Source of the DNA: a virus
Taxonomy: Duplodnaviria > Heunggongvirae > Uroviricota > Caudoviricetes
DNA length: 64,000 bases
Virus record (IMG/VR): IMGVR_UViG_2875697941_000001
Reading direction: 5' to 3' (one strand)
Shown here: one piece after another, positions 24,818 to 30,313 of the stretch
Position numbering within the stretch: the stretch's first letter is position 1
How the letters are laid out: each line of letters opens with the position of its first letter
Notes under the pieces: generated by a model
Database searches by the model: none
Told to the model about the DNA's origin: nothing
The model's input: only the letters and a program-made list of their open reading frames with translations
Program-made: the position numbers and the translations under genes

Positions 24818-25056
24818 AATTATGCCTCACTGTATTGACAACACAGAGCCTGAAGCTCTGACCTACTGTTTCACCCATGATCCATGCTGGGGTAATCTAA
24901 CAACATTGCGCTGTGTGTAAGATGAGCAATGCATAGCTGTAATGCCGTTGTATAAGGTTTCCCTGTTTGCTCATTTCCTTCTGAGCCGCTCTACAACGCT
25001 GAAGACACATTAAATAGTGAATCCAAAGTCGTATTACGAAACGGCGGCAAAACTAT

Positions 25057-25073
25057 AATTTATTAGAGCAATT
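25057..25073 (-). promoter_or_regulatory. C1 repressor operator
   Basis: AATTTATTAGAGCAATT, reverse complement AATTGCTCTAATAAATT, near-perfect consensus. Confidence 0.7.
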
Positions 25074-25138: not shown

Positions 25139-25155
25139 ATTGCTCTAATAATTAT
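25139..25155 (+). promoter_or_regulatory. C1 repressor operator
   Basis: ATTGCTCTAATAATTAT, 44 nt upstream of loxP. Confidence 0.65.
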
Positions 25156-25641: not shown

Positions 25642-26673
25642 ATGTCCAATTTACTGACCGTACACCAAAATTTGCCTGCATTACCGGTCGATGCAACGAG
25701 TGATGAGGTTCGCAAGAACCTGATGGACATGTTCAGGGATCGCCAGGCGTTTTCTGAGCATACCTGGAAAATGCTTCTGTCCGTTTGCCGGTCGTGGGCG
25801 GCATGGTGCAAGTTGAATAACCGGAAATGGTTTCCCGCAGAACCTGAAGATGTTCGCGATTATCTTCTATATCTTCAGGCGCGCGGTCTGGCAGTAAAAA
25901 CTATCCAGCAACATTTGGGCCAGCTAAACATGCTTCATCGTCGGTCCGGGCTGCCACGACCAAGTGACAGCAATGCTGTTTCACTGGTCATGCGGCGGAT
26001 CCGAAAAGAAAACGTTGATGCCGGTGAACGTGCAAAACAGGCACTGGCGTTCGAACGCACTGATTTCGACCAGGTTCGTTCACTCATAGAAAATAGCGAT
26101 CGCTGCCAGGATATACGTAATCTGGCATTTCTGGGGATTGCTTATAACACCCTGTTACGTATAGCCGAAATTGCCAGGATCAGGGTTAAAGATATCTCAC
26201 GTACTGACGGTGGGAGAATGTTAATCCATATTGGCAGAACGAAAACGCTGGTTAGCACCGCAGGTGTAGAGAAGGCACTTAGCCTGGGGGTAACTAAACT
26301 GGTCGAGCGATGGATTTCCGTCTCTGGTGTGGCTGATGATCCGAATAACTACTTGTTTTGCCGGGTCAGAAAAAATGGTGTTGCCTCGCCATCATCCACC
26401 AGCCAGCTATCAACTCGCGCCCTGGAAGGGATTTTTGAAGCAACTCACCGATTGATTTACGGGGCTAAGGATGACTCTGGTCAGAGGTACCTGGCCTGGT
26501 CTGGACACAGTGCCCGTGTCGGAGCCGCGCGAGATATGGCCCGCGCCGGAGTTTCAATACCGGAGATCATGCAAGCTGGTGGCTGGACCAACGTAAATAT
26601 TGTCATGAACTATATCCGTAACCTGGATAGTGAAACAGGGGCAATGGTGCGCCTGCTGGAAGATGGCGATTAG
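25642..26673 (+). CDS. cre: Cre tyrosine recombinase
   Basis: 343-aa protein MSNLLTVHQNLPALPVDATSDEVRKNLMDMF... with R-H-R-Y active-site context, adjacent to loxP. Confidence 0.97.
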   Translation: MSNLLTVHQNLPALPVDATSDEVRKNLMDMFRDRQAFSEHTWKMLLSVCRSWAAWCKLNNRKWFPAEPEDVRDYLLYLQARGLAVKTIQQHLGQLNMLHRRSGLPRPSDSNAVSLVMRRIRKENVDAGERAKQALAFERTDFDQVRSLIENSDRCQDIRNLAFLGIAYNTLLRIAEIARIRVKDISRTDGGRMLIHIGRTKTLVSTAGVEKALSLGVTKLVERWISVSGVADDPNNYLFCRVRKNGVASPSSTSQLSTRALEGIFEATHRLIYGAKDDSGQRYLAWSGHSARVGAARDMARAGVSIPEIMQAGGWTNVNIVMNYIRNLDSETGAMVRLLEDGD

Positions 26674-26723: not shown

Positions 26724-27035
26724 ATGAGAAAGAATTTCAACATCGACGGAAAATATGTAGTGCTGTCAGTGAGCACTAATATTCAGTCGCCAGCCGTCAT
26801 TGTCACTGTAAAGCTGAGCGATAGAATGCCTGATATTGACTCAATATCCGTTGCGTTCCCTGTCAGAAGTATGCGTAGTGCTGAACATTTCGTGATGAAT
26901 GCCACCGAGGAAGAAGCACGGCGCGGTTTTGCTAAAGTGATGTCTGAGTTTGGCGAATTTTTGGGGCACGTTGACAAAGCCCTCTCAATCAGTTCAGCAA
27001 GGTCCAAAGCATTAACAGCTTCCATGATGAAATAA
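26724..27035 (+). CDS. hypothetical protein (P1 cra position)
   Basis: 103-aa ORF downstream of cre and C1 operator; followed by GCCTGGC-AAGGA-GCCAGGC hairpin at 27041-27059. Confidence 0.5.
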   Translation: MRKNFNIDGKYVVLSVSTNIQSPAVIVTVKLSDRMPDIDSISVAFPVRSMRSAEHFVMNATEEEARRGFAKVMSEFGEFLGHVDKALSISSARSKALTASMMK

Positions 27036-27166
27036 AAAAAGCCTGGCAAGGAGCCAGGCTGCACAAAAGAGCGGGTTTGTATTCCGCATCCAATCAATCA
27101 AGAAGGAGTATAGCACACAGGTACTGAAGTGAAAAAATGTGATTCGCGATAAACAAAATATCTACC

Positions 27167-27196
27167 ATTGCTCTAATTGATTGCTATAATTGAGCC
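27167..27196 (+). promoter_or_regulatory. tandem overlapping C1 operators with embedded -10 (ref promoter)
   Basis: ATTGCTCTAATTGATTG and ATTGCTATAATTGAGCC, second contains TATAAT. Confidence 0.65.
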
Positions 27197-27250
27197 GCAG
27201 TTTTTGTCAACTACGAAGACGTTGCCATTACTTAACTCCTTGACATCATT

Positions 27251-27276
27251 GGCGGCCATCAGGCCGCCTTTTTTTT
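27251..27276 (+). terminator. intrinsic-terminator-like hairpin in ref leader
   Basis: GGCGGCC-ATCA-GGCCGCC followed by 8 T, ending 5 nt before ref ATG. Confidence 0.5.
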
Positions 27277-27281
27277 GCCAT

Positions 27282-27842
27282 ATGAAAACAATCGAACAAA
27301 AAATTGAACAGCACCGTAAGTGGCAGAAGGCAGCCAGAGAACGAGCGATCGCTCGGCAACGGGAGAAGTTGGCTGATCCGGCCTGGCGAGAATCTCAATA
27401 TCAGAAAATGCGGAATACTATCGACCGCCGTATCGCTAAACAGAAAGAGCGCCCACCAGCCAGCAAAACGCGGAAAAGCGCGGTAAAAATAAAATCTCGT
27501 GGCTTGAAGGGACGAACACCGACGGCGGAGGAGCGGCGCATAGCCAATGCTCTTGGTGCTCTCCCCTGCATTGCCTGCTATATGCATGGAGTAATATCTG
27601 AAGAGGTGTCTCTGCACCATATCTCCGGTCGTACCGCGCCTGGTTGTCACAAAAAGCAATTGCCACTTTGTAGATGGCACCACCAGCATGCAGCACCGGC
27701 TGAAGTAAGAGAAAAATACCCCTGGCTGGTCCCTGTTCATGCCGATGGTGTGGTTGGAGGCAAGAAAGAATTCACCTTGCTGAACAAGTCAGAGATGGAG
27801 TTGCTGGCTGACGCTTATGAGATGGCAAACATCATGCACTAA
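27282..27842 (+). CDS. ref: Ref (recombination enhancement function, HNH-type endonuclease)
   Basis: 186 aa; basic N-terminus, CIACYMH...HHISGRTAPGCHKK...CRWHH HNH/zinc motif; recognised as P1 Ref. Confidence 0.85.
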   Translation: MKTIEQKIEQHRKWQKAARERAIARQREKLADPAWRESQYQKMRNTIDRRIAKQKERPPASKTRKSAVKIKSRGLKGRTPTAEERRIANALGALPCIACYMHGVISEEVSLHHISGRTAPGCHKKQLPLCRWHHQHAAPAEVREKYPWLVPVHADGVVGGKKEFTLLNKSEMELLADAYEMANIMH

Positions 27843-28763: not shown

Positions 28764-29804
28764 ATGATGAATATTAAGCCGCTGAAAATTAGGAACAAGG
28801 TCATGAAGCCTCATAAAGCATTATTAAACCCTGACCTAACCGCAAGGAATGTACTTACATACAGTCATTGGGATTTTGTCGAACTCTGGTTAAAGCGAAA
28901 CGAAAAAGATGAGGCTCTTTTTTATTGGGAGCAAGCAAAAGTATTTAATCAGGCGGCCAATGGTTTACCCAACCAATCAGCCCCACTTTTGCACTATTAT
29001 TCATTCATGAATGCAGTAAAGGCGTTACTTTCATCTCGCAATATAAACTTCAAACAGCATCATGGTGTTGCTAGGGGTGAAAATACAGCCCAAATTGATA
29101 ACTTATCTGATATAAAAGTAAAAATAAAAAATGAGGGTATACTTCCGTCTTTTTCAAAATATATTGACGGCACCTCTCATGAGGGGGTGTACAATATAAA
29201 AAACCTTTTTTCTGGATTGCCATATATTCATCGTACATATTGCCTTACTTATGATGTAACTGATGATATATTTATTCCACTGATCGATGCTGAGTTCGTT
29301 TTGAATGAGTCAGACAATAGCCTGTTTTTCACTGCGATTTTATCCAAGGATTTTCGGTTCGACACAGTTTTCGACATTCTACCGCCAGCGTTCGAATTGT
29401 TTGAAAGAGAAAAGTACAAAATAAAATCAGTAGAATCATTACTTGATTTTAATGAAAATCAATCGTCCAACATGCCGCAATTAACTGAATTTCATCAAAA
29501 AATAAGAAGAGATCTTTACTATATCAATGGCGCAGAGACTCTTTGGTATCTCAAACGTAAAAACAATCAATCTGAGCATACTTCTGTTTCAATATCGCCA
29601 TTGGTTATAACCCTAGCAGCTATGCATCGATTAAGTGAGCTATGTCGGTATGACCCACTTAAGCTAAGACAGTTACTAAATGAAAAAGAAAACTGGATTA
29701 TTGCTGAATTTATTCAACAATCTCCGTCACAGTTTATAGATGCAATTTCATCTGAAATTACTGGACACCAATTTCTTATCCCAAACGTAAGGTCTGCTTC
29801 TTAA
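28764..29804 (+). CDS. uncharacterised 346-aa protein, first gene of low-GC cassette replacing res-mod
   Basis: GGAGG RBS 9 nt before ATG; strongly AT-rich codon usage unlike flanking backbone; only a weak R-x6-H (RNINFKQH) motif noted. Confidence 0.75.
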   Translation: MMNIKPLKIRNKVMKPHKALLNPDLTARNVLTYSHWDFVELWLKRNEKDEALFYWEQAKVFNQAANGLPNQSAPLLHYYSFMNAVKALLSSRNINFKQHHGVARGENTAQIDNLSDIKVKIKNEGILPSFSKYIDGTSHEGVYNIKNLFSGLPYIHRTYCLTYDVTDDIFIPLIDAEFVLNESDNSLFFTAILSKDFRFDTVFDILPPAFELFEREKYKIKSVESLLDFNENQSSNMPQLTEFHQKIRRDLYYINGAETLWYLKRKNNQSEHTSVSISPLVITLAAMHRLSELCRYDPLKLRQLLNEKENWIIAEFIQQSPSQFIDAISSEITGHQFLIPNVRSAS

Positions 29805-30313
29805 TGAATATATATATCGCATGCGCTTTAACTCATGTTCCAAGGGAAATTTTCCATGAGTACAGTAATTGGATTCACAGCCTTGCAAAAGGTCTATCTC
29901 AAAATAACAACGTAAAATATGCTTTGATAAATAGTGACCCAGAATTATCAAAGCGCCCTGAAAGTAACAAATCTAGACTTTGTTACATTTGGGACAGAGA
30001 TATGGTTGAGAAATCTGATGTAATAATTGCAGAATGTAGTTTTCCATCAACAGGGCTAGGAATAGAGTTGCAGATTGCTGAACAGAAGAACATTCCTGTA
30101 ATCATCTGTTATAAAGATTATGGGATAAATAAAACTAAAACCATTGAATACGTGAATCCAGATGAGACTACCCATAATCTACAAGTTGGCGAGGGTTTCA
30201 TTTCTCATATGGTATTAGGACTACCAAACATCCTTGATGTCATATTATGTAAAGATATTGATAACACATGCAGGAAGCTAAAAATACTGTTAGATATGAT
30301 TAACCATAATTAA
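29804..30313 (+). CDS. nucleoside 2-deoxyribosyltransferase-like (NDT/DNPH1-fold) protein, second gene of cassette
   Basis: start overlaps upstream stop (TAATG); MNIYIACAL N-terminal strand and SDVIIAECSFPSTGLGIELQIAEQKNIPVIICY resemble NDT-family catalytic region. Confidence 0.75.
   Translation: MNIYIACALTHVPREIFHEYSNWIHSLAKGLSQNNNVKYALINSDPELSKRPESNKSRLCYIWDRDMVEKSDVIIAECSFPSTGLGIELQIAEQKNIPVIICYKDYGINKTKTIEYVNPDETTHNLQVGEGFISHMVLGLPNILDVILCKDIDNTCRKLKILLDMINHN

Follow-up and report, generated by a model that had tools for sequence, protein, structure and literature searches.

The ref gene of a P1-type phage-plasmid is preceded by a G+C-rich hairpin and a U-tract that, with a probability of roughly 0.8, form a working intrinsic (Rho-independent) terminator in the ref leader, the “attenuator” of 1988. 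A promoter-operator and an attenuator of P1 ref are named in the title of Windle, Laufer and Hays (1988, J Bacteriol 170:4881), which is cited in PMC4713147, PMC3973344, and PMC10695390. Because this title places both elements ahead of ref, the leader terminator is, as far as a title can tell, already known from P1 and not new. The presence, strength, orientation, conservation, and covariation of the hairpin were observed in the sequences analysed here, and its function as an attenuator is taken from the wording of the 1988 title. Three points are gained beyond 1988. The terminator is annotated neither in the P1 GenBank record, which at the ref leader gives P2ref, Oref, and P1ref, nor in Rfam, where no family covers the ref leader; two further Ref lineages preserve its structure; and plasmids that no longer have ref retain it. 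Ref makes P1 lysogens more sensitive to ciprofloxacin and reduces lysogenisation 40-fold (PMC4713147), which makes control of the Ref level a matter of practical interest.

The ref locus and its promoters

By its gene order, its Pfam match, and its identity to P1, P7, and plasmids, the window (the whole 64,000-nucleotide stretch of DNA that was analysed) is a P1-type phage-plasmid carrying cre, c8/cra, ref, and mat, and the gene behind the hairpin is ref. The ref DNA is 96–97% identical to the ref genes of P1 and P7. A 501-nt query spanning the leader (26950–27450) shares 97.6% identity with phage P7 and 96% with phage P1, and some E. coli plasmids are 100% identical over 27100–27420. A PADLOC scan of two genes that replace res/mod gave no match. 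The genes and the elements that lie ahead of the ref promoters are as follows.

25642–26673: Cre recombinase (open reading frame list)
26724–27035: c8/cra product, 103 aa (open reading frame list)
27040–27060, minus strand: hairpin just 3' of the c8/cra stop codon (consensus scan, minus strand only)
27147–27153, plus strand: CGATAAA, H-NS nucleation motif of the ref 5' regulatory region (sequence; PMC4713147)
27282–27842, plus strand: ref, RecA-dependent HNH nuclease, 186 aa (open reading frame list; PF16786 RecA_dep_nuc, E = 1e-50)

H-NS binds the CGATAAA motif in P1, as found by EMSA and ChIP (PMC4713147). The ref leader of P1 (AF234172/NC_005856) is the same locus, with an identical operator, P2ref -10, P1ref, stem arms, T8 run, and distance to the ATG. 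The two leaders differ in one base of the hairpin loop (ATCA in the window, ATTA in P1) and at position 27235 (A in the window, C in P1). The operator and promoters of the leader comprise four elements.

27167–27183, plus strand: C1 repressor operator Oref, ATTGCTCTAATTGATTG (three mismatches to the consensus; homologous to the P1 annotation)
27180–27196, plus strand: partial second operator copy, ATTGCTATAATTGAGCC, which includes the -10 (11 of 17 consensus positions)
27182–27190, plus strand: extended -10 TGcTATAAT of the C1-controlled promoter P2ref (TATAAT at 27185–27190 is the annotated P2ref -10)
27222–27249, plus strand: predicted second promoter P1ref, TTGCCA, 16-nt spacer and CATCAT, with TG before it (scan score 9/12)

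The C1 operator is a 17-bp asymmetric sequence that resembles ATTGCTCTAATAAATTT and overlaps a promoter, and the sequence at 27167–27183 is a site of this kind. Operator-like sites with three or fewer mismatches number 11 in the window, against 0.25 expected. The counterpart in P1 (AF234172) is annotated as protein_bind “monovalent C1 controlled operator Oref”, and Ronayne et al. (2016) stated that the C1 site occludes “one of the ref promoters” (PMC4713147). The earlier note described tandem C1 operators at this position. The first of the pair is confirmed as Oref, but the second is only a partial copy that is missing both from the matches with three or fewer mismatches and from the P1 annotation, in which Oref is monovalent. 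The TG at 27182–27183 precedes TATAAT and makes P2ref an extended -10 promoter, with a start predicted from the -10 to lie near 27197. The P1 record labels the counterpart of 27222–27249 “predicted sigma 70 promoter P1ref”; transcripts from P1ref would start at about 27254–27258, which lies within the 5' arm of the hairpin.

Anatomy and conservation of the leader hairpin

The hairpin and its T-run lie where the earlier note placed them, and its distances, 55 nt from the end of the described operator pair (27196) to the hairpin and 5 nt from the T-run to the ATG, are correct.

27251–27268, plus strand: stem-loop of the proposed terminator, GGCGGCC-ATCA-GGCCGCC, with seven G-C pairs and a tetraloop (sequence, consensus scan, fold)
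27269–27276, plus strand: T8, its U-tract (sequence)

This stem has the form of an intrinsic terminator, G+C-rich and about 5–10 bp long with a short loop. The T8 run adjoins the stem directly, in the orientation of ref, and on the minus strand no T-run follows the stem. The five nucleotides GCCAT separate the T8 from the ATG at 27282. Lying between the P2ref -10 (27185–27190) and the ref start codon, the hairpin occupies the position of an attenuator. Folded alone it reaches -16.2 kcal/mol (z = -4.23), and none of 200 shuffled sequences was equally stable. Over both strands of the 64 kb (128 kb of sequence scanned), no other site has a hairpin of -15 kcal/mol or below followed directly by at least eight T; among 60 simulated windows (first-order Markov), one contained such a site. 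The T8 is also the only run of at least eight T on the plus strand. Terminators defined more loosely are not enriched around ref (six found by the consensus scan between 25000 and 30000, against 5.2 expected), and the weight of the evidence therefore rests on the instance in the ref leader itself and not on the class.

Comparison among relatives supports, at the level of sequence, a functional terminator. In the P1 group, 80 IMG/VR loci with Ref at 78–100% identity yielded 39 distinct leaders. Both stem arms are constant in all 39, apart from rare C-to-T changes (C-to-U in the RNA) at the 3' end, which leave G-U pairs in place. Loop sequences are ATCA, ATTA, and TAAA, and the T-run is 7–10 long. 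A ref-less plasmid contributes a GAAA loop and a T6 run, which extends the overall T-run range to 6–10.

Diverged Ref proteins of 54–68% identity were traced to their contigs. Ref identity is 62–68% in two further lineages and 54–57% in two metagenomic Pantoea-type relatives. Both the Klebsiella/Salmonella and the Pantoea lineage keep the order of C1-type operator-promoter, leader, terminator, and ref. Contigs of Klebsiella aerogenes, K. pneumoniae, and Salmonella (L087, L109, and L088) have a C1-type operator such as ATTGCTCTAATAATTAT together with an extended -10. About 50 nt past the operator and extended -10 they have the hairpin GACGGTC-(TACG/TTCG)-GACCGTC followed by T5–7, and this T-run starts 18–20 nt before the ref start codon. 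The Pantoea-type contigs (L089, L110, and L111) have TTTGCTCTAATAAATTT and then GCCGCC-TCCG-GGCGGC followed by T7–8, with the T-run starting about 100 nt before the start codon. When ten hairpins from the three lineages were aligned, 95.7% of the cells were standard pairs and three of the seven pairs were changed on both sides, compared with 23–67% paired in slid controls. This covariation shows a structure maintained in evolution, with few independent events across three lineages. RNAalifold applied to whole leaders returned the terminator helix as the sole consensus structure. The hairpins of the separate lineages could be independent acquisitions and not homologues.

The module does not accompany every ref. 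One Ref relative of 67% identity (L108) has an operator-like site and no terminator. Ref homologues of 58% identity or less (13 genome loci together with L090 and L112) have no operator/leader-terminator module and occur in operon settings. These cases indicate that the terminator is not obligatory for ref.

The same comparison bears on a proposal of a mainly post-transcriptional role, in which the hairpin and U-tract would stabilise the mRNA or the U-run would bind S1 as a translational enhancer in place of a Shine–Dalgarno sequence. No Shine–Dalgarno sequence was found before the ref ATG (nothing GGAG-like occurs within 20 nt of it), the U8 ends 5 nt ahead of the start codon, and the start region is predicted to be unpaired, all of which would suit such a role. 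The start codon is, however, unpaired in the folds whether the hairpin is present or absent, and the spacing from the start of the T-run to the start codon is not conserved, being 13 nt in P1, 18–20 nt in Klebsiella/Salmonella, and about 100 nt in Pantoea. The element also persists in ref-less plasmids, where there is no gene to translate, and the hairpin lies about 54 nt inside P2ref transcripts, counted from their predicted 5' end, and so is not a 5'-end stabiliser. We consider this reading very unlikely as the main function. The earlier note's option of an RNA stability or translation-control element is accordingly the weaker of its suggestions, and such a function would be a secondary role at most.

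Transcription through the ref leader

If the hairpin and U-tract are a terminator, all plus strand transcripts that enter the leader would have to pass it. Transcripts from P2ref, starting near 27197, would meet the hairpin after about 55 nt. Most polymerases would halt at the U-tract, the released RNA, reaching from the P2ref start to the T8, would be about 80 nt long, and ref mRNA would come only from the fraction that reads through. Ref, a toxic RecA-dependent nuclease, would in this way stay low even when C1 is inactive. The hairpin would act on top of C1 repression (with Bof), H-NS silencing, and a start codon without a Shine–Dalgarno sequence, and would represent a fourth layer of control beside these three. 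Tight control of ref is plausible in view of its regulation by C1 and H-NS, its effect on lysogenisation, and its 73-fold rise in mRNA after C1 inactivation (PMC4713147). That rise was measured by RT-qPCR inside ref, which implies that a substantial number of transcripts get past the terminator. We infer termination efficiency, start sites, and escape routes from the leader sequence. Three escape routes are possible. The first is plain leakiness. The second is initiation at the predicted promoter P1ref, whose start inside the 5' arm would mean that the hairpin cannot form in P1ref transcripts. The third, in the P1 lineage, is a helix between 27221–27227 and 27250–27256, or a phage factor, acting as antiterminator.

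Transcription that reads through from cre-c8 would also meet the ref-leader terminator, since cre-c8 has no canonical plus strand terminator of its own. The hairpin at 27040–27060 has its T-run on the minus strand only, and the plus strand 3' of its stem reads TGCACAAAAG, so that the ref-leader hairpin is the first canonical plus strand terminator after cre-c8. The terminator would then also insulate ref from C1-independent transcription in lysogens. It has to be asked whether the hairpin mainly terminates the upstream cre-c8 unit as an insulator, with damping of P2ref as a side effect. The lack of an earlier plus strand terminator fits this idea, as do the Klebsiella/Salmonella and Pantoea lineages, in which the operator touches or overlaps the stop codon of an upstream gene that runs in the same direction, and the leader terminator is the only one between that gene and ref. 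A pure insulator could, however, lie upstream of the promoter, and the fixed order of promoter and then terminator in three lineages suggests selection on P2ref transcripts. Insulation as the main role is a tentative possibility that we regard as on the unlikely side; it overlaps the preferred reading, a terminator acting on ref transcription, and does not replace it.

Whether the terminator is itself switched was considered from folds of the leader, in which three further elements are predicted.

27197–27225, plus strand: 5' leader hairpin, P1 lineage (predicted, MFE fold)
27221–27227, plus strand: GUUGCCA, upstream arm of a candidate antiterminator helix (fold)
27250–27256, plus strand: UGGCGGC, downstream arm of the candidate antiterminator, overlapping the 5' arm of the terminator (fold)

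Regulated attenuation would mean that the terminator is switched off by the GUUGCCA/UGGCGGC helix or by a P1-encoded antitermination factor and that read-through is a controlled lytic step. The 1988 title contains the words “attenuator-antiterminator control”, and the folds of the P1 lineage offer a candidate. Before the 3' arm of the terminator is made, its 5' arm can pair with 27221–27227, adding about -6.6 kcal/mol; GUUGCCA is otherwise partly used by the 5' hairpin, and the predicted result is the classic layout of mutually exclusive 1:2, 2:3, and 3:4 helices. Against this, the 2:3 helix falls short of the terminator by about 9 kcal/mol, and once the 3' arm is present it is used in none of the suboptimal folds within 6 kcal/mol of the MFE. 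It holds about -6.6 kcal/mol in the window and most P1-group leaders but falls to -2 to -3 kcal/mol in several P1-group lineages, and it is absent from the cross-lineage consensus (RNAalifold). The 5' hairpin is likewise absent from that consensus and is broken in L054-type variants. Comparative folds give no support to a conserved 5' hairpin or a conserved antiterminator, and both were rejected.

A leader peptide was also rejected. The in-frame starts are only TTG codons without a Shine–Dalgarno sequence, there is no ATG-led short open reading frame, and the leader reading frame is broken among variants by changes in T-run length and a 1-nt insertion. Rfam scans of the leader and of the window gave no nut, qut, put, or riboswitch match at threshold. 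A tRNA at 701–773 is all that the window yields at gathering scores, and the leaders of relatives gave no matches. The absence of a leader peptide and of such Rfam matches counts against regulated attenuation, which we hold to be unlikely.

Antitermination of the regulated kind that the 1988 title implies may occur but gains no support from the present folds. No identification of the antiterminator was found in the literature, in which the 1988 work is represented by its title. The earlier note had proposed attenuation or antitermination control on top of C1 repression. The first part holds, in that a terminator with a constant stem and compensatory changes stands in the leader and agrees with the wording of the 1988 title, but a conserved antiterminator was not found.

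Known systems resemble the ref leader in part. In trp/pyrBI-type leader-peptide attenuators a terminator likewise lies between the promoter and the first gene, and their mutually exclusive 1:2, 2:3, and 3:4 helices have predicted equivalents in the P1-lineage leader. The ref leader differs in having no leader peptide open reading frame and only a weak, unconserved antiterminator helix. In phage lambda, the Q protein is a dedicated antiterminator that is loaded at qut and overrides the terminator. The lambdoid PR'/tR' arrangement (lambda 6S RNA; StxS of Shiga-toxin phages, PMC7547250) is similar to the ref leader in that a strong intrinsic terminator stands ahead of the genes, at most about 100 nt past a promoter, and the short terminated RNA is the default product. 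PR' is constitutive and overridden by Q at qut, whereas P2ref is controlled by a repressor and no Q/qut- or N/nut-like element was found in the ref leader.

The leader unit in plasmids without ref

About 51 PLSDB plasmids without ref keep the operator, the P2ref -10, the leader, the hairpin, and a T6 run, and the kept segment ends exactly at the T-run. The stem is intact in these plasmids and the loops differ. The stop codon of a convergent gene for a KilAC-domain antirepressor lies two bases past the T-run. Read from sequence, these plasmids show a terminator that appears to be trusted to stop P2ref transcription before it would run antisense into the neighbouring gene.

The unit from P2ref to the terminator might alternatively be a gene in its own right, for a C1-controlled small RNA, about 80 nt long and with a 3' end of the Hfq type, that has a role separate from ref. 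The layout is that of a small RNA gene: P2ref provides a promoter, the intrinsic terminator ends in a long U-tail, and small RNAs usually carry a 3' module of this kind, a GC hairpin with U8 behind it. Retention of the unit in the ref-less plasmids, with a constant stem and a variable loop next to the stop codon of the convergent antirepressor gene, is in keeping with this reading. So is the motif CUCC(U/C)UGAC, which immediately precedes the hairpin in the leaders of P1 and of Klebsiella/Salmonella and appears as UCCUGA in the Pantoea group. A terminated late-promoter RNA with a function of its own has a precedent in StxS of Shiga-toxin phages (PMC7547250). Other observations point away from a separate small RNA. 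Complementarity of the leader to the rest of the window is not in excess (four ten-mers, against 5.7 expected), and between lineages the leader 5' of the hairpin shows little conservation. Ref-bearing L054-type elements are close relatives of the ref-less plasmids, so that retention may be recent. An Rfam scan of the leader at E values up to 10 gave only sub-threshold small RNA look-alikes, the best at E = 0.08 and far below gathering scores, and these reflect the terminator shape only. We judge a separate small RNA gene to be highly improbable. If true, a small RNA gene active on C1 inactivation would explain why the unit is retained in about 51 P1-type plasmids in which ref has been replaced by a convergent antirepressor operon. 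In these plasmids an icd-like gene usually precedes the antirepressor gene, and mat follows.

Transcription into ref and the ref reading frame

Upstream of the ref leader, the following hairpin occurs directly after the gene c8/cra:

27040-27060, T-run on the minus strand only: hairpin directly after the c8/cra stop codon

No minus-strand gene is located near this hairpin despite its minus-strand T-run. On the plus strand it has no U-tract and, therefore, there is no canonical terminator for cre-c8 transcripts before the ref leader. No stop codon interrupts the ref frame over the 35 codons before the ATG (27177-27281), and ref lacks a Shine-Dalgarno sequence. A coding upstream extension of ref over this interval was rejected because indels in relatives shift the frame.

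Leader variation among Ref lineages and related plasmids

A CUCC(U/C)UGAC motif lies directly 5' of the terminator (the ref-leader hairpin and its T-run) in leaders of the P1 and Klebsiella/Salmonella groups (27234-27245 in the window, and relatives), and the Pantoea group has the version UCCUGA. Leader conservation is poor outside this motif, and the P1 copy includes a perfect TTGACA hexamer. Pantoea-type Ref loci (L089, at 1907-2000, L110 and L111) have an extra leader of ~100 nt 3' of the terminator, which is near-invariant among the three loci and folds strongly (-32.4 kcal/mol, z = -2.4). This added leader has no Rfam match, and no covariation was found among its three sequences. The sequences that flank the terminator in Pantoea-type loci are predicted to be able to pair together.

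Some P1-type plasmids have lost ref itself. In L083 (NZ_CP027443, 2501-4007) and two further plasmid loci, L084 and L085, a KilAC-antirepressor gene of convergent orientation stands in place of ref, in most cases with an icd-like gene before it, and this replacement occurs in ~51 PLSDB records. The unit of C1 operator and promoter (Oref/P2ref), leader and terminator is still present in these ref-less plasmids, in which the replacement breakpoint is the exact end of the T-run.

Several other plasmids (L086, which is NZ_CP080128, at ~2629, and H75-H79) match the window until 27234, where the match stops and a Tn3-family transposase gene follows. This looks like a Tn3-type insertion that separates P2ref from the terminator within the ref leader. 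In P7 itself, Tn3 sits at the 3' end of ref.

Other features of the window

P1 has res/mod downstream of mat, whereas the window has two other genes at this position (28764-30313). The product of the first has 346 aa and is YaaC-like (PF14175, E = 6e-46); that of the second has 169 aa and matches nucleoside 2-deoxyribosyltransferase below threshold (E = 2e-4). PADLOC gave no match for either protein; the two genes may constitute an uncharacterised defence-type cassette.

Across the 64 kb, a tRNA gene alone matched Rfam at gathering score, and a scan with the C1 operator consensus (≤3 mismatches) gave 11 sites in the window vs 0.25 expected. The tRNA gene and example operator matches are:

701-773: tRNA gene (RF00005, 64.7 bits)
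25056-25072: C1 operator match
25139-25155: C1 operator match
11920-11985: C1 operator matches, a facing pair

The operator matches include a close pair immediately upstream of cre.
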